From contig CM097885.1 in the NCBI GenBank assembly GCA_044892525.1, positions 28,274,001 to 28,338,000 on the forward strand: a stretch of DNA of 64,000 bases, given 5' to 3'. This document shows positions 698 to 57,271 of this stretch, one piece after another. Each line of letters starts with the position of its first letter. Positions within the stretch are counted from its first letter, which is position 1. The DNA comes from Schmidtea polychroa (Eukaryota). The position numbers and the translations under genes are program-made. The notes beneath the pieces were generated by a model. That model worked only from the letters and a program-made list of their open reading frames with translations, ran no database searches and was not told where the DNA came from.

Positions 698-35614
<34,917 letters not shown>

Positions 35615-41649: not shown

Positions 41650-42401
41650 TTATATTTTAATCAAAGGACATTCCATTAAAGAGCTAAATCGATACTTACG
41701 CATGTTTCTATAAAAATTATCAAAACAAAGAGACACATCATTATTCATACTTTCAATTGTAGAGCTGAAATTATTGATAATATCCGTGGCATTTTGAGGA
41801 CGTAGTCTAATAGTGAAGTATCTATTTTTTAGGCAGGAGAATATTTCTTCGATGGGATTCAATTGCGGGCTATAAGGGGGCAGATAAACATGATCAACAT
41901 TATTGTTTTCAAACCACGTAGCAACCTCTCGTGTCTTGTGAAACTTTAAATTATCCATTAGAATGACATTATCAGGAGAAAAATAGCCTAAATTTTTACA
42001 TTCTATCAAAAACTCTAAAAAACAGACTACCATTATATGGACCTTCGACTAATTTAATATACAGAAATTTTTCGTTTGAAATTATCGACAATAAACTAAT
42101 ATTTCTTCCTCTGTTTGTTGGAACAGTTATTGCAGCTGGAGTATTAACTGGGGAATATCCATAATTGGGGACCGTATGCAAATTAAACCCGGTCTCATCC
42201 AGATATAAAATGGCATTATTTCTTATATTTCTGAATTTCAAAGCAAATATTTTTCTTTGCGCAATCAATTCAGGAGATTCTACTTTAATTGGCCTTTTCT
42301 GAAGTCTTTTCCTCGTTAAATTAAGTTTTTTAAAATAGAGAGAAACAGTGGGTTGGCTTATATTAATATTCTCAGTTTCTGAAAAATTAGCAATCCCTGT
42401 T
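41650..42401 (-). pseudogene. Tc1/IS630-family DD34E transposase, catalytic part (interrupted)
   Basis: ILYLDETGFNL ... VILMDNLKFHK ... LPPYSPQLNPIE, with 34 residues between the second D and E. Frameshift near 42020. The N-terminus lies beyond the 14.5 kb insertion. Confidence 0.9.
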
Positions 42402-42744
42402 AGTAGGGAGTTAGTGGCCCGCGGCAGCAATAGGGGGGGGGGGTAAAAAATGTTGCAAACTTTTGATTGCATAACTTTTTCCGTAGACATTTTTTGATTA
42501 CATAATTGTTGCCGTAATGCCCAATGTTTTCTGGGATTTTAAATACAAATTTTTTTTTTTTTTTTTTTTTTTTCAATAAACAAGCCAAGGATAAATATTA
42601 TTTGGGTGGGTCTCCTTGGTCCTGAGAATTTCAATAGAAAAAGGTAGTCTTCAATAAAAAAGCATGGATTTTTCACACTATAGTGAGGGGATCTTCTTGG
42701 TCATGAGAATTTCAATAGAAAAGGTGGTTTACATTAAAAAACGC

Positions 42745-43400
42745 ATAGTAAATTTTTAAAATAAAGTAAATTATGGGTCTAAAATTTAAAAATAAAGTAA
42801 ATGATGGGTCTAAAAATTTAAGTAAATCAAGGTTCAGATTTATTTTTGAAATAAAGTAAATTATGGTCTAAATAAGTAAATTATGGGCTAAGATTTTTCA
42901 ATTAAAGTAAATAATGGTTCTAAAAAATTAAATTACAGTAAATTATGGTCCAAATTTTTAAATTAAAGTAAATTATGGTTCTTAAAAATTAAATTAAAGT
43001 AAATTATGGTTCTTAAAAATTAAATTAAAGTAAATTATGGTCAAAATTTTTGAATTACAGTCCAAAAATTTAAATTAAAGTAAATTATGATCCAAATTTT
43101 TAAATTAAAGTAAATAATGGTTCTAAAAAATTAAATTAAAGTAAATAATGGTCCAAATATTTTAAATTACAGTAAATAATGGTTCTAAAAATTAAATTAC
43201 AGTAAATAATGGTCAAAAATTTTAAAATTAAAGTAAATTATGGTTCTAAAAATTAAATTAAAGTTAATTAAGGTCCAAATTTTAAAATTAAATAATCAAT
43301 GGTAAAAAAAAATTTAAATTAAAGTTAAATAAGTAAATTAAAGTAATAATTTTTAAATAAGTAAATTAAAGTAATGTAATAAGTAAATTAAAGTAAGATT
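42745..43400. repeat. Subterminal ~30-bp tandem repeat array, left arm (mirror ~55940-56590)
   Basis: Degenerate unit AAATTAAAGTAAATTATGGT(T/C)C(T/A)AAA.. repeated many times. Confidence 0.85.
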
Positions 43401-43582
43401 TTTAAATTTATTAACAAAAATAGAAGGTGTTTGAGAATTGAAATTTTTTAATGGAAATTTTAATGAATTATTTTTTAAGTAATTTTTAATAGAAATTTTT
43501 ATGAATAATTTTCAATGGTAATTTTTAATGGAAATTTTAATAGAATAATTTTTAAGATAATTTTTAATGAAAATTTTTATGA

Positions 43583-43668
<86 letters not shown>

Positions 43669-43855
43669 TAATATTAATAATATATCAACCAAATACTATA
43701 CAACACATAAAAAATTAACTAAACACATAAAAATAACTAGACACATAACAAAACATATAAACATTAACTAAACACATAAAAATGAACTAGACACATAACA
43801 AACATAAAAATTTACCAAATAACAAATGTAAAGATATAAAATTTATTCAATAAAA

Positions 43856-46800
43856 TTAGTCCTCATCGGACAAAATAACGTCATCGATATCGATGTCATC
43901 TTCTCCAAAATCTTCATTTAATTCTTCCTCATCTTCTCCATCATTTTCTCCAACATTTTCTGAAACATTTTCTGCAACAATTTCTCCAACATTTTCTCCA
44001 ATATTTAATTCACTTAATCTTACATGCCCATATGCAAGACTAGTATTTTGCCCCACCCAAACCCTTTTGTCATCTTTGTTAGTTAGTGCTATTTTTGTGT
44101 TTTTAATTGTAAAAATTTGATGATTTTTGCTTGTTATTTTAGTCTGAGGAACCGAAAAAATCTGGTTAGTGTTATAACAATCCAGGTATGACTGATGTTT
44201 TATGTCACTACCTTTCAATGTTACACCTTTAGCCTTTTTTGTTTCCTCATCACCCAACAAGCTATAACATTTAGGTCTAAGAAAAACCCACTCCTTATAT
44301 TTAAGACCTTTATTCTCGTCTTTGAACTTTCCAATGACTGAATCAAGGTTCTTACTATATAAGGAATGACAACTATTGTAATTGGAAGTATCCAATAAAT
44401 TATCTCGAACCATTGCAGGTAAAAGAACCTCAAGTTTGCAGTTAATGACTTCGAGGAAAAAAGAATCTGTATCACCTGCAACGATATTAATTTTACAATT
44501 AAACTCATTGCGAAATGATTCCAGATCCTTATATTGCAATTCATACATTCTAAGTTTAGATAGATCAAGTACAGATTGACCAATGTAACTCGGTCTATCT
44601 AAACATATAGAATCGGAATTCAATAGTGCTGCAATTAAATTATCTGCTATTTTAATAGATTTTTTAAAAGTCGGTTTTGACGAATATTTAACTAATTTAC
44701 CGGCAGTTGTACAAAGACGAAGATTCATTCTTCTCTTTAAATTTTCAACTGTTTTGCCGTATAAACTATTATTTAGCAATTTATAATAATTTTTATCTAA
44801 GCTATTTACGCTTTTTGATCTTAATTCGGTATTTGTATCTATATATTTTTTAAAAATTGGTGATTGCTTAAATCTTACACCCCTATTTACACGTGTTACT
44901 TTAACACCAAGTTCCAAATATAATTTTAATAATCTCCAATGAATAACATAATTAGATTTTGGAAGATGAGTTAATAATAATTTTTCAACCTTAGACCCAG
45001 CAGGTTTCATTTTTTCAGCAGCTACAGGGAAATCATCCAACTTATCATGAAGCTCAGAAGGAATTACAAGATCAACTTCAAGTGTGTATCCATAAGACAA
45101 AGATTCAAGATTTAAATTCCTACATTCATCCATTATTTTATCAAATCCATCAAGAACCCAACAAAATTCGCCACAAGGTAATGATTGACTTAAAGCCCAG
45201 CCATAAAGATTATTAATATCTATATATAGTAACTCAGTGTTCTCGTCGGTTTTTACGTAATGCTTATTCACAAAAGTAAGACCGCCTCTTATTCCACCCT
45301 CATAAAAGCTAAACATTTCGTTTTCAGTTATGAGTTCAATTGGTTCATTTAAAGACATTAATGCAGAAGACCAAGACATGCCTGGAATTCCGAAATAATT
45401 CAATGGTTCCAATCTATTGTGAGCAATGGATTTCAACCGAAACTGATGAAAGAAATCAGCCAAAAGAAAACAATCAAGTTTTAGGTAGATCATCATATAA
45501 TCTAATAAAGTTACGCAATTAGTTTCTACCCAAATCTCCTGAGCTTTTTCATACTCAAGCTCAGTGACACCCTCCCAGATTGGTGGTAATTCATAAGTAG
45601 TTTGGAGAATATCTAAAGAAGTGGCGAAATTATAAGGGAAGATTCCTTTTTCACTTACTATGGTGCCAGAAAAAGCAGAATTAGTAAAAGGCAAAGAATT
45701 CAAAGTTTTGACTGCTTTAGCCAAAGAATCATTGACAAATTGATACGAATCAATGAATCTTAGGCTAATTTTACCTAAATGAGCAATCAAAGATATAAAT
45801 TTTTCCGTAGTTATTGGGATGCACCCTAAATTCCAATTTTTAAATTTATTTAATCCATATTTAAGTATATGGTGCATATCGTATCCCTTCAAGTTGTGAA
45901 ATACGATAGGCAAAATTTTATTTATTTTCCTATTTACGTTACATGTGCTACAAGCTGCACCCAAGTATTTCCCCGTAAAATGATCGTGATCTCTAACAGG
46001 ATCGACGATAGATTTCATACAAAGATAACAAACAGATGCACTAACAAATTGACGTTGTTCAATTTTTGTTAATTTCATCATAGGTTTCCTACCCATTTTA
46101 TAATAAAAAGGAAGAACCTTATTTAATGCTATATCCTCTATAGCACTTAAAAAACTCTCGACGCAATCTAAACCTATGAACTGCTGATAAGATTTAGACC
46201 CGTCAAAGTTATTTACAAGTAAAAGACCAGCAGATATTGGCATGTGTCGTTGGAAATGATCATTATCAGAAGGTAAAATAGCCTCAAAATCTGCATAAAC
46301 TACAAAAGGAGGAGTTACTGTTTTCGACCAGTCAGTAAACTGTAATAATTTATTTTGAGGGAAGGTGTAAAGAGTTGTTCCTAATTGATTACGTTTACAT
46401 AATATTTCATGTTTTTCTAGTGCGTGTTTATTATTAAACCCATTCAAACACCGATGGTACCATAATGAACGTATGCGTGTAGGACAACTAGTGTTGATAT
46501 GACAATTCATTAACTTATTTAAATTACTTATAGCAACGTAATGGAAATTGTTTCCTTTATTTAATAATAGTAAATTAATTACAGTTCCATTTAAAACTTT
46601 GGAACGATGTATAATATCTAAATGTGGGTGTTTTAATACGTAATTATCTATTAATTGTTTGTTATTGTCATAAGAAAAAACGTTAATTATTAAGCCTGGA
46701 TTTTTGGCCTCGAATTTTCTAATATCTTTTAATTTCATGGGTAAGTCCAATGGATTATATATTAATTCAGATAAATTATAACTGGATGTCCTATTTCTAG

Positions 46801-47437
46801 CATAACTACTAACCTCATCATATTTTAAAATAGCTAAAATGCTATATAAAAAACATGAATCATCGGTGTTTTTTATATTAATTAAACAATATTTATTTTT
46901 TAGATAAGTAGGTGTTTCAATGAAACTCCTACCACTTAATCTACTTAGCCTACTTATTTTTGTTATGGTGAAATGTATTTCAGTGATATTTTTTATATTC
47001 CAACTGCTTCCTAACTCAGTAATATTAGTAATTTTCTCATTTAATTCCTTAATGCCTTCATCAAAAAATGATGCAGTTAAAGGCTTTGCATAATTTGAGA
47101 TATTATTAACCTTTATTTCCCCGTCTTTTTCAAATTCGATTGTTATTCCGAATTGAATTTTGACGGAGCCTAATTCGTTAATAATATCTCGTAATTTTTT
47201 TATTAGTTGTTCAGGAAATATTATTTCTTTTATATTTAAGTCGCTTGTATTTAAGCTTAATATTTGATGGGTACCTCTTAGATCTTTTTGTATTATTGGA
47301 ACATTTCCACCTATTTGTATTATATTTAATCCATCCCAAGAGTCAAGGGAAATATTATCTAATCCAACCTGGGATTCAACAACCAATCCATCATGGGATT
47401 CGACAACCAATCCATCATTGGATTCCACAAAAGGCAA
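43856..47437 (-). CDS. polB: Protein-primed family B DNA polymerase (Polinton/Maverick pPolB), left copy
   Basis: Exonuclease motifs VYADFE, FHNLKGYD, YLKLD. Polymerase motifs YIDINNLYG, KLLNNSLYGK, AGDTDS. Endonuclease VII-like insert CYLC..DHDHFTGKYLGAACSTCN. The listed start is TTG, so the true start is probably upstream. Confidence 0.93.
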   Translation of the reverse strand: MPFVESNDGLVVESHDGLVVESQVGLDNISLDSWDGLNIIQIGGNVPIIQKDLRGTHQILSLNTSDLNIKEIIFPEQLIKKLRDIINELGSVKIQFGITIEFEKDGEIKVNNISNYAKPLTASFFDEGIKELNEKITNITELGSSWNIKNITEIHFTITKISRLSRLSGRSFIETPTYLKNKYCLINIKNTDDSCFLYSILAILKYDEVSSYARNRTSSYNLSELIYNPLDLPMKLKDIRKFEAKNPGLIINVFSYDNNKQLIDNYVLKHPHLDIIHRSKVLNGTVINLLLLNKGNNFHYVAISNLNKLMNCHINTSCPTRIRSLWYHRCLNGFNNKHALEKHEILCKRNQLGTTLYTFPQNKLLQFTDWSKTVTPPFVVYADFEAILPSDNDHFQRHMPISAGLLLVNNFDGSKSYQQFIGLDCVESFLSAIEDIALNKVLPFYYKMGRKPMMKLTKIEQRQFVSASVCYLCMKSIVDPVRDHDHFTGKYLGAACSTCNVNRKINKILPIVFHNLKGYDMHHILKYGLNKFKNWNLGCIPITTEKFISLIAHLGKISLRFIDSYQFVNDSLAKAVKTLNSLPFTNSAFSGTIVSEKGIFPYNFATSLDILQTTYELPPIWEGVTELEYEKAQEIWVETNCVTLLDYMMIYLKLDCFLLADFFHQFRLKSIAHNRLEPLNYFGIPGMSWSSALMSLNEPIELITENEMFSFYEGGIRGGLTFVNKHYVKTDENTELLYIDINNLYGWALSQSLPCGEFCWVLDGFDKIMDECRNLNLESLSYGYTLEVDLVIPSELHDKLDDFPVAAEKMKPAGSKVEKLLLTHLPKSNYVIHWRLLKLYLELGVKVTRVNRGVRFKQSPIFKKYIDTNTELRSKSVNSLDKNYYKLLNNSLYGKTVENLKRRMNLRLCTTAGKLVKYSSKPTFKKSIKIADNLIAALLNSDSICLDRPSYIGQSVLDLSKLRMYELQYKDLESFRNEFNCKINIVAGDTDSFFLEVINCKLEVLLPAMVRDNLLDTSNYNSCHSLYSKNLDSVIGKFKDENKGLKYKEWVFLRPKCYSLLGDEETKKAKGVTLKGSDIKHQSYLDCYNTNQIFSVPQTKITSKNHQIFTIKNTKIALTNKDDKRVWVGQNTSLAYGHVRLSELNIGENVGEIVAENVSENVGENDGEDEEELNEDFGEDDIDIDDVILSDED

Positions 47438-47479
47438 TCCGACCTGGGATTCAAAAGAAGAAGTATCTAATTTAATTTT

Positions 47480-48197
47480 TTAATTTTTATTATTTTTTTC
47501 TATAGTTGAGGGTCTTTTAAAAACACTATCTTTTTTAAAATTAAACCTATCTAAATGATTTTTATGTTTATTATAAAAAACGCTATATGTTACGGGGTCA
47601 CTAGTCTTACATACGGGACATATAAAATAAGTTTTATTATAATATTTTTTCGTATAATAATTCTCCATTATAGAATGGCAATTATTATCATGTTCTTTCG
47701 ATGAACAATAATTTGGGTAAAGTATACCTATAAAATAAAAATTTAATAAAAAAAATATAATTTAAATGAAATATTTTAGTAAATGTTTACGCAAAAATTT
47801 GCAAATTATTATTATTTTACAAATTTTATTTACTAAAAAATAAAAATTTACTAAATTAAAAATATTAACATTTACTTAAATAAAAAATTATATTAAATTT
47901 CCTTTAAATTATAAAAAGTAATCAATACTTACATTGTAAATTTTCATTTCGATTTATTGACACATTGACATAATTTTTTTCTTTATTCGTATTACCTAAA
48001 TTATTAATTAATTAAATCAATAAATTAAAAATTATGTTTACTTTTTCTTTTCAAATTTCCTTTAATCTTAGATTTTAAATTGTCTTCATTAATATTATCT
48101 AAATTAATTAATAAATTAATTAATAAATAAATTAAAATTTACCAAATTTCTGAATTTTTTCTCGGACATTCATAACGTTTTCTATTAAAGAATTCAT
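47480..48197 (-). CDS. 4-exon leader ORF (140 aa, C2H2-like Zn finger), left copy
   Basis: Mirror of 51173-51890: exons 48197-48143, 48098-48042, 47995-47933, 47727-47480. Confidence 0.7.
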
Positions 48198-48699
48198 TTT
48201 TAAAGGTTAACTATTTGTTAAATGTGACTAATGATTGATTATTGTTTATAGATTATTATTGTTTATAGATTATTATTGTTCATAGGAACAAATTCTAACC
48301 AATCAAAATCAAGGAAGGGTAGGAAAAATTAATTTATTTTAAAACACATTTTGACGCTAAAGTTGACTTATTTAACATTTTCATAATAATTTAATAAAAA
48401 TAATGTGATGAACACACAAAGTAATATCATTTTTCATCAAATTGCAAAACAGTAATAACGTTTTCATAAAATTGTAACAAAGTAATAACATATTTCAGAT
48501 AAATTTTCAACAGTTGTAAAATATTTATCAAATTGTAACTAAAATAATAAAAATATTGCAACAAAGTAATAAAATAATAATGGTAATTAAGACAAATCAA
48601 TACATTATTTCGAAGACGGACAACAAATTAAAAAGAATATTGTAACTAAAATAATAAAAATATTGCAACAAAGTAATAAAATAATACAACATTTTAAAC

Positions 48700-49180
48700 T
48701 CTAGATTAATCCATTTTATAGAAAATTAAATTTTATCTATATAATATATGAATAAATATCCAAGGAAATTACGTTAACGTATAATAAATACAAATTTATC
48801 GTAAAAACATGTGTGTATTACACACAAAACAAGATACATAATTTCTAATCAATCCATTTTATAGAAAATTAAATTTTATCTATATATTATATGAATAAAA
48901 TCCTAAGAAAATTACGTTAACTGTATGAAAAATACAAATTTATCATAAAAACATGTGTGTATTACACACAACATACGAGACATAATTTTTAATCAAGCTA
49001 TTTTATAGAAAATTAAATTTTATCTATATAATATATGAATAAAAATCCAAGAAAATTACGTTAACCGCGCGAAAAACTACAAATTTATTGTAAAAACATG
49101 TGTGCATTACACACAAAGCATCAAACTGAAATTGTAATTGCGCCATGTTGTAGAGAATTAAATTCTGCCTATACATGGTT
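48700..49180. repeat. ~144-bp tandem repeat (3+ copies), left arm (mirror ~50190-50670)
   Basis: Units begin ~48711, 48854, 48998 and partially 49142. Full units contain GTTAAC and TGTGTG(T/C)ATTACACACA dyads. Confidence 0.85.
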
Positions 49181-49231
49181 ACACTTAAATCTCGATCAGA
49201 CATGTGAAAAGAGACATAAAAGATAAAAAAC

Positions 49232-50138
49232 AGTAGAGTAGTATGATGTGGGCCCGCCCGGCCAGGAGCCCGCTCGGCCACATATACCCCCTCCCCCCCG
49301 TGTGTAAAATAATGTTAATAATAATATTTATATATCAGTATATAGATTTTGCACTGGGCTTTAAAATAAGTGTTTGATTAATAAATTCGGATGATGGAAA
49401 CATTACTTTTGGGAAGAAAAAAAGTAGGTCACCGCTGGACCAATTAATTTAAAAAAATTACGTAATAGTTCTAAAAATATTAGGCATCGTTCTAAAAATA
49501 TTAGGCATTGATTACGTAATAGTTCTAAAAATATTAGGCATCGTTCTAAAAATATTTGGCATCGTTCTAAAATTATGACGTAATCGTTCTAAAAATATTT
49601 GGCATCGTTCTAAAAGTATGATGTAATCATTCTAAAAATAATAGACATCGTTCTAAAAATATTTGGCATCATTCTAAAATATTAGACATCATTCTAAAAA
49701 TATTAGGCATCGTTCTAAAAATATTTGGCATCATTCTAAAATATTAGACATCATTCTAAAAATGTGATGAGTCATTGTCTTTGTTCTAAAAATGTGATGA
49801 GTCATCGTATGATAAAAATCTATATCTCATTAGAAAGTTCTTGCACAGAGCTTTAAAATAAGCTATCGATCAATATAATATGTTGGCGGGAACAATAATT
49901 TTTGGGATGAAAAAAAGTAGGTCCCCGCTGGATCACTTAATTTAAAAAAAATTACGTAATAGTTCTAAAAATATTAGGCATCGTTCTAAAAATATTAGTC
50001 ATTGATTACGTAATAGTTCTAAAAATATTAGGCATCGTTCTAAAAAAAAAAAATAAAATTTTTTCCCGGGGGGGGGGAGGGGGTATATGTGATCTGGAGG
50101 GGACATGGCCGGGAGGGGACACATCATACTACTCTACT
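49232..50138. mobile_element. Central 907-bp mini-element with Maverick-like termini (palindrome pivot)
   Basis: AGTAGAGTAGTATGATGTG ... CACATCATACTACTCTACT. Imperfect GC-rich TIRs extend to ~49299/50068. The interior has a duplicated ~230-bp block and 21-bp repeats. Confidence 0.65.
49455..49807. repeat. ~21-bp tandem array CATCGTTCTAAAAATATTAGG
   Basis: Head-to-tail degenerate units with interspersed TTACGTAA and TGAGTCA motifs. A second short block lies at 49950-50045. Confidence 0.9.
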
Positions 50139-51059
50139 GTTTTTTATCTTTTATGTCTCTTTTCACATGTCTGATCGAGATTTAAGTGTAACCATGTATA
50201 GGCAGAATTTAATTCTCTACAACATGGCGCAATTACAATTTCAGTTTGATGCTTTGTGTGTAATGCACACATGTTTTTACAATAAATTTGTAGTTTTTCG
50301 CGCGGTTAACGTAATTTTCTTGGATTTTTATTCATATATTATATAGATAAAATTTAATTTTCTATAAAATAGCTTGATTAAAAATTATGTCTCGTATGTT
50401 GTGTGTAATACACACATGTTTTTATGATAAATTTGTATTTTTCATACAGTTAACGTAATTTTCTTAGGATTTTATTCATATAATATATAGATAAAATTTA
50501 ATTTTCTATAAAATGGATTGATTAGAAATTATGTATCTTGTTTTGTGTGTAATACACACATGTTTTTACGATAAATTTGTATTTATTATACGTTAACGTA
50601 ATTTCCTTGGATATTTATTCATATATTATATAGATAAAATTTAATTTTCTATAAAATGGATTAATCTAGAGTTTAAAATGTTGTATTATTTTATTACTTT
50701 GTTGCAATATTTTTATTATTTTAGTTACAATATTCTTTTTAATTTGTTGTCCGTCTTCGAAATAATGTATTGATTTGTCTTAATTACCATTATTATTTTA
50801 TTACTTTGTTGCAATATTTTTATTATTTTAGTTACAATTTGATAAATATTTTACAACTGTTGAAAATTTATCTGAAATATGTTATTACTTTGTTACAATT
50901 TTATGAAAACGTTATTACTGTTTTGCAATTTGATGAAAAATGATATTACTTTGTGTGTTCATCACATTATTTTTATTAAATTATTATGAAAATGTTAAAT
51001 AAGTCAACTTTAGCGTCAAAATGTGTTTTAAAATAAATTAATTTTTCCTACCCTTCCTT

Positions 51060-51172
51060 GATTTTGATTGGTTAGAATTTGTTCCTATGAACAATAATAA
51101 TCTATAAACAATAATAATCTATAAACAATAATCAATCATTAGTCACATTTAACAAATAGTTAACCTTTAAAA
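51060..51172 (+). promoter_or_regulatory. Candidate promoter of the leader/pPolB transcript (mirror 48198-48310)
   Basis: Reverse CCAAT (GATTGG), three AAACAATAAT repeats and an initiator-like TCATTAGTC ~35 nt before ATG 51173. AATAAA at 55523 lies just after the pPolB stop. Confidence 0.35.
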
Positions 51173-51890
51173 ATGAATTCTTTAATAGAAAACGTTATGA
51201 ATGTCCGAGAAAAAATTCAGAAATTTGGTAAATTTTAATTTATTTATTAATTAATTTATTAATTAATTTAGATAATATTAATGAAGACAATTTAAAATCT
51301 AAGATTAAAGGAAATTTGAAAAGAAAAAGTAAACATAATTTTTAATTTATTGATTTAATTAATTAATAATTTAGGTAATACGAATAAAGAAAAAAATTAT
51401 GTCAATGTGTCAATAAATCGAAATGAAAATTTACAATGTAAGTATTGATTACTTTTTATAATTTAAAGGAAATTTAATATAATTTTTTATTTAAGTAAAT
51501 GTTAATATTTTTAATTTAGTAAATTTTTATTTTTTAGTAAATAAAATTTGTAAAATAATAATAATTTGCAAATTTTTGCGTAAACATTTACTAAAATATT
51601 TCATTTAAATTATATTTTTTTTATTAAATTTTTATTTTATAGGTATACTTTACCCAAATTATTGTTCATCGAAAGAACATGATAATAATTGCCATTCTAT
51701 AATGGAGAATTATTATACGAAAAAATATTATAATAAAACTTATTTTATATGTCCCGTATGTAAGACTAGTGACCCCGTAACATATAGCGTTTTTTATAAT
51801 AAACATAAAAATCATTTAGATAGGTTTAATTTTAAAAAAGATAGTGTTTTTAAAAGACCCTCAACTATAGAAAAAAATAATAAAAATTAA
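51173..51890 (+). CDS. 4-exon leader ORF (140 aa, C2H2-like Zn finger), right copy
   Basis: Exons 51173-51227, 51272-51328, 51375-51437, 51643-51890. Three GT-AG phase-1 introns (44, 46, 205 nt) give an open frame MNSLIENVMNVREKIQKFDNINEDNLK...CPVCKTSDPVTYSVFYNKHKNH...KRPSTIEKNNKN*. Confidence 0.7.
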
Positions 51891-51932
51891 AAAATTAAAT
51901 TAGATACTTCTTCTTTTGAATCCCAGGTCGGA

Positions 51933-54900
51933 TTGCCTTTTGTGGAATCCAATGATGGATTGGTTGTCGAATCCCATGATGGATTGGTTGTTGAATCCCA
52001 GGTTGGATTAGATAATATTTCCCTTGACTCTTGGGATGGATTAAATATAATACAAATAGGTGGAAATGTTCCAATAATACAAAAAGATCTAAGAGGTACC
52101 CATCAAATATTAAGCTTAAATACAAGCGACTTAAATATAAAAGAAATAATATTTCCTGAACAACTAATAAAAAAATTACGAGATATTATTAACGAATTAG
52201 GCTCCGTCAAAATTCAATTCGGAATAACAATCGAATTTGAAAAAGACGGGGAAATAAAGGTTAATAATATCTCAAATTATGCAAAGCCTTTAACTGCATC
52301 ATTTTTTGATGAAGGCATTAAGGAATTAAATGAGAAAATTACTAATATTACTGAGTTAGGAAGCAGTTGGAATATAAAAAATATCACTGAAATACATTTC
52401 ACCATAACAAAAATAAGTAGGCTAAGTAGATTAAGTGGTAGGAGTTTCATTGAAACACCTACTTATCTAAAAAATAAATATTGTTTAATTAATATAAAAA
52501 ACACCGATGATTCATGTTTTTTATATAGCATTTTAGCTATTTTAAAATATGATGAGGTTAGTAGTTATGCTAGAAATAGGACATCCAGTTATAATTTATC
52601 TGAATTAATATATAATCCATTGGACTTACCCATGAAATTAAAAGATATTAGAAAATTCGAGGCCAAAAATCCAGGCTTAATAATTAACGTTTTTTCTTAT
52701 GACAATAACAAACAATTAATAGATAATTACGTATTAAAACACCCACATTTAGATATTATACATCGTTCCAAAGTTTTAAATGGAACTGTAATTAATTTAC
52801 TATTATTAAATAAAGGAAACAATTTCCATTACGTTGCTATAAGTAATTTAAATAAGTTAATGAATTGTCATATCAACACTAGTTGTCCTACACGCATACG
52901 TTCATTATGGTACCATCGGTGTTTGAATGGGTTTAATAATAAACACGCACTAGAAAAACATGAAATATTATGTAAACGTAATCAATTAGGAACAACTCTT
53001 TACACCTTCCCTCAAAATAAATTATTACAGTTTACTGACTGGTCGAAAACAGTAACTCCTCCTTTTGTAGTTTATGCAGATTTTGAGGCTATTTTACCTT
53101 CTGATAATGATCATTTCCAACGACACATGCCAATATCTGCTGGTCTTTTACTTGTAAATAACTTTGACGGGTCTAAATCTTATCAGCAGTTCATAGGTTT
53201 AGATTGCGTCGAGAGTTTTTTAAGTGCTATAGAGGATATAGCATTAAATAAGGTTCTTCCTTTTTATTATAAAATGGGTAGGAAACCTATGATGAAATTA
53301 ACAAAAATTGAACAACGTCAATTTGTTAGTGCATCTGTTTGTTATCTTTGTATGAAATCTATCGTCGATCCTGTTAGAGATCACGATCATTTTACGGGGA
53401 AATACTTGGGTGCAGCTTGTAGCACATGTAACGTAAATAGGAAAATAAATAAAATTTTGCCTATCGTATTTCACAACTTGAAGGGATACGATATGCACCA
53501 TATACTTAAATATGGATTAAATAAATTTAAAAATTGGAATTTAGGGTGCATCCCAATAACTACGGAAAAATTTATATCTTTGATTGCTCATTTAGGTAAA
53601 ATTAGCCTAAGATTCATTGATTCGTATCAATTTGTCAATGATTCTTTGGCTAAAGCAGTCAAAACTTTGAATTCTTTGCCTTTTACTAATTCTGCTTTTT
53701 CTGGCACCATAGTAAGTGAAAAAGGAATCTTCCCTTATAATTTCGCCACTTCTTTAGATATTCTCCAAACTACTTATGAATTACCACCAATCTGGGAGGG
53801 TGTCACTGAGCTTGAGTATGAAAAAGCTCAGGAGATTTGGGTAGAAACTAATTGCGTAACTTTATTAGATTATATGATGATCTACCTAAAACTTGATTGT
53901 TTTCTTTTGGCTGATTTCTTTCATCAGTTTCGGTTGAAATCCATTGCTCACAATAGATTGGAACCATTGAATTATTTCGGAATTCCAGGCATGTCTTGGT
54001 CTTCTGCATTAATGTCTTTAAATGAACCAATTGAACTCATAACTGAAAACGAAATGTTTAGCTTTTATGAGGGTGGAATAAGAGGCGGTCTTACTTTTGT
54101 GAATAAGCATTACGTAAAAACCGACGAGAACACTGAGTTACTATATATAGATATTAATAATCTTTATGGCTGGGCTTTAAGTCAATCATTACCTTGTGGC
54201 GAATTTTGTTGGGTTCTTGATGGATTTGATAAAATAATGGATGAATGTAGGAATTTAAATCTTGAATCTTTGTCTTATGGATACACACTTGAAGTTGATC
54301 TTGTAATTCCTTCTGAGCTTCATGATAAGTTGGATGATTTCCCTGTAGCTGCTGAAAAAATGAAACCTGCTGGGTCTAAGGTTGAAAAATTATTATTAAC
54401 TCATCTTCCAAAATCTAATTATGTTATTCATTGGAGATTATTAAAATTATATTTGGAACTTGGTGTTAAAGTAACACGTGTAAATAGGGGTGTAAGATTT
54501 AAGCAATCACCAATTTTTAAAAAATATATAGATACAAATACCGAATTAAGATCAAAAAGCGTAAATAGCTTAGATAAAAATTATTATAAATTGCTAAATA
54601 ATAGTTTATACGGCAAAACAGTTGAAAATTTAAAGAGAAGAATGAATCTTCGTCTTTGTACAACTGCCGGTAAATTAGTTAAATATTCGTCAAAACCGAC
54701 TTTTAAAAAATCTATTAAAATAGCAGATAATTTAATTGCAGCACTATTGAATTCCGATTCTATATGTTTAGATAGACCGAGTTACATTGGTCAATCTGTA
54801 CTTGATCTATCTAAACTTAGAATGTATGAATTGCAATATAAGGATCTGGAATCATTTCGCAATGAGTTTAATTGTAAAATTAATATCGTTGCAGGTGATA

Positions 54901-55514
54901 CAGATTCTTTTTTCCTCGAAGTCATTAACTGCAAACTTGAGGTTCTTTTACCTGCAATGGTTCGAGATAATTTATTGGATACTTCCAATTACAATAGTTG
55001 TCATTCCTTATATAGTAAGAACCTTGATTCAGTCATTGGAAAGTTCAAAGACGAGAATAAAGGTCTTAAATATAAGGAGTGGGTTTTTCTTAGACCTAAA
55101 TGTTATAGCTTGTTGGGTGATGAGGAAACAAAAAAGGCTAAAGGTGTAACATTGAAAGGTAGTGACATAAAACATCAGTCATACCTGGATTGTTATAACA
55201 CTAACCAGATTTTTTCGGTTCCTCAGACTAAAATAACAAGCAAAAATCATCAAATTTTTACAATTAAAAACACAAAAATAGCACTAACTAACAAAGATGA
55301 CAAAAGGGTTTGGGTGGGGCAAAATACTAGTCTTGCATATGGGCATGTAAGATTAAGTGAATTAAATATTGGAGAAAATGTTGGAGAAATTGTTGCAGAA
55401 AATGTTTCAGAAAATGTTGGAGAAAATGATGGAGAAGATGAGGAAGAATTAAATGAAGATTTTGGAGAAGATGACATCGATATCGATGACGTTATTTTGT
55501 CCGATGAGGACTAA
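51933..55514 (+). CDS. polB: Protein-primed family B DNA polymerase (Polinton/Maverick pPolB), right copy
   Basis: Translation identical to 43856-47437 with the same motifs. The frame is open back to 51891. Confidence 0.93.
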   Translation: MPFVESNDGLVVESHDGLVVESQVGLDNISLDSWDGLNIIQIGGNVPIIQKDLRGTHQILSLNTSDLNIKEIIFPEQLIKKLRDIINELGSVKIQFGITIEFEKDGEIKVNNISNYAKPLTASFFDEGIKELNEKITNITELGSSWNIKNITEIHFTITKISRLSRLSGRSFIETPTYLKNKYCLINIKNTDDSCFLYSILAILKYDEVSSYARNRTSSYNLSELIYNPLDLPMKLKDIRKFEAKNPGLIINVFSYDNNKQLIDNYVLKHPHLDIIHRSKVLNGTVINLLLLNKGNNFHYVAISNLNKLMNCHINTSCPTRIRSLWYHRCLNGFNNKHALEKHEILCKRNQLGTTLYTFPQNKLLQFTDWSKTVTPPFVVYADFEAILPSDNDHFQRHMPISAGLLLVNNFDGSKSYQQFIGLDCVESFLSAIEDIALNKVLPFYYKMGRKPMMKLTKIEQRQFVSASVCYLCMKSIVDPVRDHDHFTGKYLGAACSTCNVNRKINKILPIVFHNLKGYDMHHILKYGLNKFKNWNLGCIPITTEKFISLIAHLGKISLRFIDSYQFVNDSLAKAVKTLNSLPFTNSAFSGTIVSEKGIFPYNFATSLDILQTTYELPPIWEGVTELEYEKAQEIWVETNCVTLLDYMMIYLKLDCFLLADFFHQFRLKSIAHNRLEPLNYFGIPGMSWSSALMSLNEPIELITENEMFSFYEGGIRGGLTFVNKHYVKTDENTELLYIDINNLYGWALSQSLPCGEFCWVLDGFDKIMDECRNLNLESLSYGYTLEVDLVIPSELHDKLDDFPVAAEKMKPAGSKVEKLLLTHLPKSNYVIHWRLLKLYLELGVKVTRVNRGVRFKQSPIFKKYIDTNTELRSKSVNSLDKNYYKLLNNSLYGKTVENLKRRMNLRLCTTAGKLVKYSSKPTFKKSIKIADNLIAALLNSDSICLDRPSYIGQSVLDLSKLRMYELQYKDLESFRNEFNCKINIVAGDTDSFFLEVINCKLEVLLPAMVRDNLLDTSNYNSCHSLYSKNLDSVIGKFKDENKGLKYKEWVFLRPKCYSLLGDEETKKAKGVTLKGSDIKHQSYLDCYNTNQIFSVPQTKITSKNHQIFTIKNTKIALTNKDDKRVWVGQNTSLAYGHVRLSELNIGENVGEIVAENVSENVGENDGEDEEELNEDFGEDDIDIDDVILSDED

Positions 55515-55701
55515 TTTTATTGAATAAATTTTATATCTTTACATTTGTTATTTGGTAAATTTTTATGTTTGTTATGTGTCTAGTTCATTTTTATGTGTTT
55601 AGTTAATGTTTATATGTTTTGTTATGTGTCTAGTTATTTTTATGTGTTTAGTTAATTTTTTATGTGTTGTATAGTATTTGGTTGATATATTATTAATATT
55701 A

Positions 55702-55754
<53 letters not shown>

Positions 55755-56934
55755 TCATAAAAATTTTCATTAAAAATTATCTTAAAAATTATTCTATTAA
55801 AATTTCCATTAAAAATTACCATTGAAAATTATTCATAAAAATTTCTATTAAAAATTACTTAAAAAATAATTCATTAAAATTTCCATTAAAAAATTTCAAT
55901 TCTCAAACACCTTCTATTTTTGTTAATAAATTTAAAAATCTTACTTTAATTTACTTATTACATTACTTTAATTTACTTATTTAAAAATTATTACTTTAAT
56001 TTACTTATTTAACTTTAATTTAAACTTTTTTTTACCATTGATTATTTAATTTTAAAATTTGGACCTTAATTAACTTTAATTTAATTTTTAGAACCATAAT
56101 TTACTTTAATTTTAAAATTTTTGACCATTATTTACTGTAATTTAATTTTTAGAACCATTATTTACTGTAATTTAAAATATTTGGACCATTATTTACTTTA
56201 ATTTAATTTTTTAGAACCATTATTTACTTTAATTTAAAAATTTGGATCATAATTTACTTTAATTTAAATTTTTGGACTGTAATTCAAAAATTTTGACCAT
56301 AATTTACTTTAATTTAATTTTTAAGAACCATAATTTACTTTAATTTAATTTTTAAGAACCATAATTTACTTTAATTTAAAAATTTGGACCATAATTTACT
56401 GTAATTTAATTTTTTAGAACCATTATTTACTTTAATTGAAAAATCTTAGCCCATAATTTACTTATTTAGACCATAATTTACTTTATTTCAAAAATAAATC
56501 TGAACCTTGATTTACTTAAATTTTTAGACCCATCATTTACTTTATTTTTAAATTTTAGACCCATAATTTACTTTATTTTAAAAATTTACTATGCGTTTTT
56601 TAATGTAAACCACCTTTTCTATTGAAATTCTCATGACCAAGAAGATCCCCTCACTATAGTGTGAAAAATCCATGCTTTTTTATTGAAGACTACCTTTTTC
56701 TATTGAAATTCTCAGGACCAAGGAGACCCATCCAAATAATATTTATCCTTGGCTTGTTTATTGAAAAAAAAAAAAAAAAAAAAAAATTTGTATTTAAAAT
56801 CCCAGAAAACATTGGGCATTACGGCAACAATTATGTAATCAAAAAATGGCTACGGAAAAAGTTATGCAATCAAAAGTTTGCAACATTTTTTACCCCCCCC
56901 CCCTATTGCTGCCGCGGGCCACTAACTCCCTACT

Positions 56935-57271
56935 CCTGTTTGGTTAAAGGAATTATCGTGTTGAATGCATTTCCCAACCTTAAGAAATTTTTCTCTAATG
57001 CCAAGAGCTGCTCTTCCAGGTTTCTTGAACTGAATATTTTTTATAAGATCTTCATCGTCAGCCTGTTCAATTTTAGTTAGCCATTTATATTAAGACTTAT
57101 TCGAAATCTTCAACACTCTCGCCATTTTTGCGATGTCGTCACCTTCAGACTTCATATCCTTCAAAAGTTCAAGAATTTTTTGCGTGATTATATTCTTCTT
57201 TTCCTGGGATTATTTGATTGTTCTTCTAAGCCGAGGATATTCGTAAATGCATTTTTGTGTTCAGGACTCAT
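56935..57271 (-). pseudogene. Tc1/IS630 transposase N-terminal HTH part (other half of 41650-42401)
   Basis: MSPEHKNAF.../KNIITQKILELLKDMKSEGDDIAKMARVLKISNKS*YKWL...KKPGR...HDNSFNQTG joins in frame to IANFSETENINISQPTVS once the insertion and one TSD copy are removed. Confidence 0.85.

Follow-up and report, generated by a model that had tools for sequence, protein, structure and literature searches.

Palindromes in Tetrahymena rDNA and in Streptomyces linear plasmids form by fold-back priming at short inverted repeats, and panhandle repair of the inverted terminal repeats (ITRs) is a feature of adenovirus. For the replication and excision of Maverick elements there are, to our knowledge, models (panhandle, protein priming) but hardly any observations.

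Intact Mavericks are defined by core open reading frames, terminal inverted repeats (TIRs) and target site duplications (TSDs) of 6 bp, according to two descriptions (PMC8097293; PMC6431247). In C. elegans, a protein-primed family B polymerase (pPolB) is found with a TIR and without an integrase at 10 loci; the accessible text of that report does not mention palindromes (PMC11414722). In fold-back priming at short inverted repeats, a 3′ end pairs with such a repeat nearby and is extended to a long palindrome, with the spacer left uncopied (PMC10622511). Searches of an open-access library gave no description of palindromic, pPolB-only Mavericks with captured ends.

The 64,000-nt stretch of Schmidtea polychroa DNA analysed here (the window) contains a palindromic, pPolB-only element, termed P1. 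The centre of P1 appears to be a captured end of a helper Maverick that faces a short inverted copy, and it may well act as a reusable fold-back primer for the second arm; the probability of this reading is put at about 0.55.

P1 and related palindromic elements

The features of P1 outside its centre, in window positions, are the following.

42402..56934, no strand: the whole P1 element, a 14,533-bp palindromic, pPolB-only Maverick derivative
42396..42401, plus strand: left 6-bp TSD, CCTGTT
56935..56940, plus strand: right 6-bp TSD, CCTGTT
42402..49236, plus strand: left arm, from the outer P1 terminus AGTAGGGAGTTAGTGG to the junction ...AAAAACAGTAG
50134..56934, minus strand: right arm, inverted copy of the left arm; its start is the exact prediction of fold-back extension from 50133
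43856..46738, minus strand: protein-primed PolB frame of the left arm, 960 aa from the first ATG and 1207 codons from stop to stop
52632..55514, plus strand: protein-primed PolB frame of the right arm (PF03175, E 4e-31)
48336..49236, plus strand: inner arm module with 144-bp repeats, ending in AAAAACAGTAG and mirrored at 50134–51034

The arms (6.9 kb) display 99.3% identity and each has one PolB frame, both pointing outward. The PF03175 match is found on the 960-aa frame and identifies it as a protein-primed family B polymerase; a longer copy of the P1 polymerase gives PF02945 only, below the cut-off. The P1 polymerase shows a 60% identity to that of family A, an autonomous Maverick family described below.

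As a whole, P1 displays Maverick features, i.e. TIRs with AG/AGT-type ends and a 6-bp TSD. The window copy has no open reading frame for a retroviral-like integrase. P1 is a non-autonomous Maverick derivative and not a full member, since its ends, TSD and polymerase are of the Maverick type and no match to integrase, ATPase or capsid is found.

An in-frame stop codon is present upstream, in the 5′ part of the PolB frame, in both arms of the window copy. It recurs in several further copies, in some of them in a single arm; other copies have open frames of 1270 aa. The insertion site of the window copy is a remnant of a Tc1/mariner-type DDE_3 transposase (window 41650–42401 and 56935–57240), and the left flank encodes a DDE_3 remnant.

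Searches of the window's own genome (781 Mb) show that P1 is a multi-copy family. The P1 outer terminus is found 187 times on the plus strand and 185 times on the minus strand, with one further outer variant outside this count. The inner 19-mer is found 157 and 148 times, and its reversed control 0 and 0 times. Among 13 P1 stretches examined (lengths 6.9–14.6 kb), 12 have both ends.

A second palindromic family, P2, has an outer terminus of its own (140 plus, 141 minus) and a polymerase that is 54% identical to the P1 polymerase. Despite the different polymerase and outer end, the inner arm module at 48336–49236 is common to P2 with 96–97% identity, and the P2 centre is of the same kind as the P1 centre. 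With respect to an origin of the module in free Mavericks, only a motif of ~60–80 bp at its outer edge was matched.

All 22 P elements tested match the family-A polymerase, and none of the 22 matches the integrase, ATPase or capsid-like proteins of family A. No autonomous element with P1 or P2 ends and its own integrase or capsid genes was present among the unpaired ends and long pairs that were fetched. In a protein homologue search the best matches are 59% identical and are mostly unnamed metagenome proteins.

Every P2 copy examined has several frame shifts in the N-terminal third of its polymerase match (L096–L099). A third palindromic arrangement (L208, C1:15.071–15.078 Mb) has arms with an A-like polymerase (82–88% protein identity) and a C-like centre, with the AAAAACAGTAG junction on one side. 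At the P2 copy at C1:68871–95576 (L171, L101, L102, L172) the host flanks are mirrored over ~4.4 kb, and the locus also holds a partial duplicate of a P2 end. At C1:197686511–197714929 (L173, L174) a P1 locus is mirrored twice, and one and the same flank adjoins each of its four outer termini. It represents either a chromosomal inverted amplification or an assembly problem.

Long inverted repeats are difficult to assemble, and host flanks are mirrored at two loci (C1:0.07 Mb and C1:197.7 Mb), so the palindrome and its centre could be read as artefacts of assembly or of fold-back in the library. This is extremely improbable; it is effectively refuted by the direct 6-bp TSDs, which are found in 11 of the 12 two-ended P1 copies and in 9 P2 copies of the 10 that could be scored (11 tried). 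In addition, the elements are at many distinct sites, the spacer is non-palindromic, centre types are common to copies, and public runs from two studies with the same organism label contain at least half of the words of the stretch; there was no RNA run among those listed.

The centre and its unequal termini

A DNA search with the centre also matched elements of 12–16 kb whose outer TIRs correspond to centre positions 219–902. Two of the four that were fetched are autonomous Mavericks, termed family A. The autonomous family-A element is ~16 kb in length, with TIRs of ~1.1 kb and a 6-bp TSD (CAACAT in one). It encodes an integrase (rve + chromo), an A32-like ATPase (Pox_A32), a TBP-like protein and a polymerase of 1335–1376 aa. 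Integrase, ATPase, pPolB, TIRs and TSD place family A with the Mavericks/Polintons; the capsid is represented by a DJR-like protein that is a feature-search lead only, its recognition being under the 2300 mark of that search. At least 102 near-identical capsid-like genes are present (102 scored of 5013; the search was saturated). No cysteine protease was seen among the family-A open reading frames. The TBP-like protein has a chain length of 154 aa (PF00352, E 5e-15; L055:7379–7840).

Family C (L204, C1:11.31–11.32 Mb) has a capsid-like protein that is 98% identical to that of family A, but its polymerase is only 59% identical and its terminus is also different. On these identities, terminus and polymerase seem to move as a pair on the background of a structural module that the two families have in common. 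The window itself contains a 1.8-kb non-autonomous family-C Maverick at 10378–12193 (TSD CAGGGA), and its terminus is of the type found in the C-type centres of P2. A third family, D, has a polymerase 27% identical to that of A. At the start of the family-D TIR is a 245-bp unit with inverted termini of 24 bp, and these termini are as long as the short end of C-type centres.

The first-pass annotation of the window had described a second, inward-facing pair of Maverick-like termini at the inner ends of the P1 arms. The letters are present as described, and these are real Maverick ends, of family A. The boundaries assigned to them require a correction: AGTAGAGTAGTATGATGTG starts at 49232 (plus strand) and 50138 (minus strand), but the inner ends proper lie at 49237 and 50133, since autonomous family-A elements and the one-armed elements described below end exactly there. 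Thus the first AGTAG is part of the mirrored arm, and the family-A terminus starts AGTAGTA. The centre contains these features.

49237..49299, plus strand: short inner end, a 63-bp inverted copy of an A-type Maverick terminus and the putative fold-back landing site
49300..49322, plus strand: 23-bp linker, absent from sampled free Mavericks and used as a centre-specific marker
49323..49552, minus strand: older A-type TIR fragment (TIR positions 86–317, 86–87% identical), in the orientation of the long end and overlapping it
49450..50133, minus strand: long inner end (family-A TIR positions 1–715, 91–93%), the integration end in one-armed elements

The order is thus short end (63 bp), 23-bp linker, older reversed TIR fragment, and A TIR from 715 to 1. 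The ends are unequal: one has 63 bp with 11 mismatches, the other ~700 bp of TIR. The first ~65 bp of the window long end match both termini of one autonomous A element without a difference (C2:151.42–151.44 Mb), and this identity includes the 28 nt of the long end that had been noted as diverged.

Several details given earlier for this region are borne out by the sequence. The two arms diverge over 28 nt (11 mismatches at 49251–49278), after which CACATATACCCCCTCCCCCCC matches again, to 49299/50071. The flanks AAAAAC and GTTTTT are inverted, and there is no direct TSD at the centre. The end of arm identity 19 nt inside the termini is correct for the window copy; it is not a fixed boundary across copies. 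Among 55 copies, 7, 11, 14, 17–22, 28 or 34 nt precede the first inner mismatch (14 is commonest, 24 copies), and 3 of the 55 show no inner mismatch within 56 nt. A flip-flop relation of the two 28-nt pieces was rejected by eye; they are not reverse complements.

The TIR repeats (window 49237–50133, and the A and C TIRs) are rich in the words TTACGT, TGACGT and TGACTCA, which we take to be bZIP-like sites. Raw counts of TTACGT are 9 in the 897-bp centre and 0 in the outer 1.4 kb of P1.

Sixty-five distinct centres were compared: 47 are A-type (227–2097 bp) and 18 are C-type (269–731 bp). C-type centres have both ends from autonomous family C, at the identical AAAAACAGTAG junction. They display the design of the A-type, with a 24-bp short end, a linker and a reversed TIR, and are seen in P2 only.

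The centre had been interpreted as a nested, non-autonomous mini-element of which free-standing copies should exist. This does not agree with the unequal ends, and neither a free copy nor a parent continuing past the junction was found. The DNA search, the terminus patterns and the linker marker gave no free copy with a 6-bp direct TSD; as far as these searches go, the first half of the outcome named in advance as refuting the interpretation has thus been observed. In the DNA search 40 of 3628 candidates were scored. An arm flank is present at all 50 loci examined for free copies of the centre; among the 19 best other full-length DNA matches there is no free centre, and all have arm flanks. 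A direct repeat of 3–10 bp at boundaries of the 49232/50138 type was seen at none of 43 paired loci. The linker marker is found at 322 places in the genome, and the arm junction precedes it in 100 of the 100 matches listed (48 checked by list, 34 and 18 by fetched sequence). No terminus pair under 5 kb was found among the first 100 free A-type ends listed. Only five termini of the window type lack a preceding C, and these are three P centres and two ends of larger A-type elements.

Of 497 upstream flank motifs, 479 lead directly into the inner end; three of the 18 exceptions were listed (C1, up to 199 Mb), and these are two deletions and one nested insertion. The junction is followed by a non-A base in one element, a point variant. 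These exact-match patterns and partial lists revealed no parent continuing past the junction, although a diverged parent could be missed by them. The long end of the centre does have the terminus of an autonomous partner family, A.

These results bear on a second explanation, that of one founding event. As in the first-pass annotation, an A-type element, small or later deleted, would have entered a parental Maverick behind ...AAAAACAGTAG, and a strand with its end at the far side of that element would have given the palindrome by a single fold-back; variation in the loop would represent conversion from A TIRs, and one-armed elements would be by-products. The exact geometry of the fold-back is in accordance with this, and free symmetric family-C mini-Mavericks do exist (675 bp; 3.2 kb with TSD CTGGCA; the 1.8-kb element in the window). 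There is also an A-type element whose end sits behind an AGTAG target at C1:30.94 Mb, which shows that the extra AGTAG can be target sequence. A single event is nevertheless unlikely. Besides the lack of a free centre and of a parent in the searches above, the ends are unequal, the linker is absent from the sampled free elements, and a C-type centre at the identical junction (18 of 65 centres) needs further events. Moreover, the donor sequence in 11 of 55 copies stops only 7 nt short of the end, and little homology is left there for a two-sided conversion. A nested insertion may have been the very first, ancient event.

One-armed elements, and the proposed renewal of the long end and fold-back priming

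The two ends of the centre differ in their relation to free Mavericks. In 73 A-type centres, the first 45 nt of each end were compared with 23 sampled versions of the free end. On the long side, 23 are exact and 43 are within 2 mismatches of a sampled free A end; on the short side, 0 are exact and 0 within 2, with at least 4 mismatches from every sampled free end. The same centres show 39 distinct versions of the long end versus 16 of the short end. Four classes of A-subfamily TIR are found on the long side, each of them also among free ends, and for 46 of 56 long ends a free end gave a better score than a centre of another class did (the 10 misses are one class poorly split by the motif used). 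Thus the long end is a current TIR end of family A (or of family C).

The arms display a different pattern. In 55 copies the arm-to-arm mismatch is 2% outside the junction (123 of 5500 positions) and 24% at inner positions 8–45 (507 of 2090); at inner positions 1–7, which were part of the pattern used to pick copies, it is 0 of 385. A mismatch is already present at inner position 8 in 11 of the 55, and it could be inherited rather than renewed. Over 3644 columns in 13 copies, the median number of arm differences is 2 within a copy versus 61 between copies. Private variants are found in both arms in 153 cases and in one arm in 27, of which one diverged copy supplies 132 and 8, respectively; without that copy the numbers are 21 and 19. 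The arms are copied from each other. This copying extends into the centre, as displayed by the 3 of 55 copies that are identical over 56 nt and by a re-centred copy (L192).

In a third explanation, the palindrome would predate its centre and would have been made by generic template switching; a helper would then have landed in one arm, arm-to-arm repair would have mirrored the junction and 24–63 bp of the helper end, and deletions would have removed the rest, so that the centre would be a scar with no role in priming. A snapshot of such a process may be the P1 copy at C1:97900478–97926647 (L085–L087), which hosts a nested 14.6-kb family-D Maverick (TSD TCCCCG) and has a mirror copy of the first ~970 bp of this Maverick at the corresponding site of the other arm. 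Re-centred copies such as L192 exist, as do foldbacks without inner ends: giant foldbacks with A ends lack inner termini in all three checked, so palindromes here do not need inner ends. There are also P copies without a centre that retain TSDs (L071, L079, L112), but these look like secondary deletions. What this explanation leaves unaccounted for is that the long end tracks the A subfamilies while the paired short end stays at least 4 mismatches off, and that a large majority of copies keep both ends. It is improbable as a replacement for fold-back priming; within the fold-back explanation, the same process may be the true origin of the short end. Copying into the centre, together with the mirrored ~970 bp of family D, does indicate that panhandle repair could keep the arms alike without priming.

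Elements with a single arm provide further evidence. Their layout is P1 outer end, arm, short end, linker and captured A end, and they stop at the equivalent of 50133. Three of 18 one-sided candidate loci have an exact 6-bp TSD (chance 8e-4 per locus).

C1:228994659–229002352: one-armed element, TSD CGGTGT, 98.6% identical to window 42402–50133
C1:55901588–55911765: one-armed element, TSD AATATT
C3:15505593–15513999: one-armed element, TSD TTGTGG

The long ends of the three are three different variants. In a fourth candidate (C1:136.58 Mb) the A end adjoins host DNA, but the P end is damaged and there is no TSD; the other one-sided candidates proved to be full copies, or copies with deletions or truncations. 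Among 8 one-sided P2 loci, none is a one-armed element that has a TSD and a family-C end. The exact 6-bp TSDs of the one-armed elements show that the inner end works as a transposon integration end.

The first-pass annotation had proposed that a single strand ending at the inner terminus forms a panhandle and is extended by a strand-displacing pPolB. Pairing and extension are indeed predicted, and one-armed elements exist; what changes is the nature of the primer, which would be a recurrently captured helper end. In the predicted structure, a strand that ends at 50133 pairs from 49237 on, with 14 perfect terminal pairs, a mismatched stretch and a 21-bp clamp (minimum free energy and centroid structures agree; z −8, 20 shuffles). 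Extension from 50133 on this fold reproduces exactly the 30 nt to the right of 50133. The one-armed elements with TSDs and this base-for-base prediction of the second arm make fold-back chemistry a plausible route to giant palindromes, in the form of recurrent capture of helper ends.

The captured end as a fold-back primer suggests a cycle, for which we infer the half-to-full direction, pPolB as the polymerase and the source of the integrase. Within the TIR repeats of the loop, one crossover or one template switch would join a P arm to a fresh helper end and give a one-armed molecule; alternatively, the inner end of a full palindrome would be used directly. The one-armed strand could integrate as it is or fold back. 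In the latter case, 50133 would fold onto 49237, and the strand-displacing pPolB would copy the arm out to the P terminus. The palindromic product would then integrate with its two P ends by an integrase borrowed from A or C. Through repeated cycles the long end would be renewed and the arms would stay identical, and the short end would remain frozen.

The one-armed elements may instead be products only, the inner end being used at excision, as the sequence gives no direction. The junction common to A-type and C-type centres appears to have no account under the fold-back cycle.

A broader proposal, which is tentative and somewhat doubtful, is that P1 and P2 are polymerase-only satellite replicons selected to carry the end of the current helper, which is swapped as helper subfamilies turn over. 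The end would serve both as palindrome primer and as a licence for the helper machinery, and the elements would cycle between a one-armed form with hybrid ends and a two-armed form. If so, P1 and P2 would keep their own origin and pPolB, and the licence might consist of integrase loading, of packaging, or of bZIP-like TIR enhancer sites that drive the divergent polymerase genes.

Significance and comparison with known systems

The genome may be regarded as a store of frozen intermediates of Maverick replication and excision. One-armed elements with mixed ends and exact TSDs show that one integration reaction accepts the ends of two families, and that a terminus in an internal position can function as an end. 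The fold-back reading would offer a concrete route, open to counting, for the formation of giant palindromic Maverick derivatives and for their remaining perfect. The centres appear to record a repeated exchange of ends between satellite and helpers, and end swapping and mosaicism in a virus-like lineage thus become testable.

P1 and P2 resemble Mavericks/Polintons, as characterized in PMC8097293 and PMC6431247, in their AGT-type termini, 6-bp TSD, protein-primed PolB and TIRs. They differ in that the “TIRs” are whole arms of 6–7 kb with two copies of the polymerase, and in that P1 and P2 do not match the helper integrase, ATPase and capsid-like proteins. In addition, the loop contains the end of a foreign family, which is usable as one integration end.

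In the fold-back priming set out in PMC10622511, the priming end is a break. In the P elements it is a transposon terminus, and the polymerase is presumed to be pPolB. The product is also different, being a mobile, multi-copy element, and the event seems to be recurrent.

Snapback genomes of AAV (PMC10924063) are helper-dependent, rearranged products of strand displacement that contain an end and whose ends are mutually corrected, and the subgenomic molecules of phi29, which form by template switching (PMC4974454), are likewise end-containing, rearranged strand-displacement products. Unlike these, the P elements keep their own origin and polymerase, have the helper end in an internal position, and integrate with TSDs in hundreds of copies.

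For endogenous virophages and PLVs, a preprint proposes hairpin priming at the ends of Polinton-like elements (bioRxiv 10.64898/2026.07.28.741278). The palindromes described there are 52 nt in length, are situated at the outer ends and are mostly in elements without pPolB, whereas in the P elements the inverted pair occupies the centre, with arms of kilobase length.
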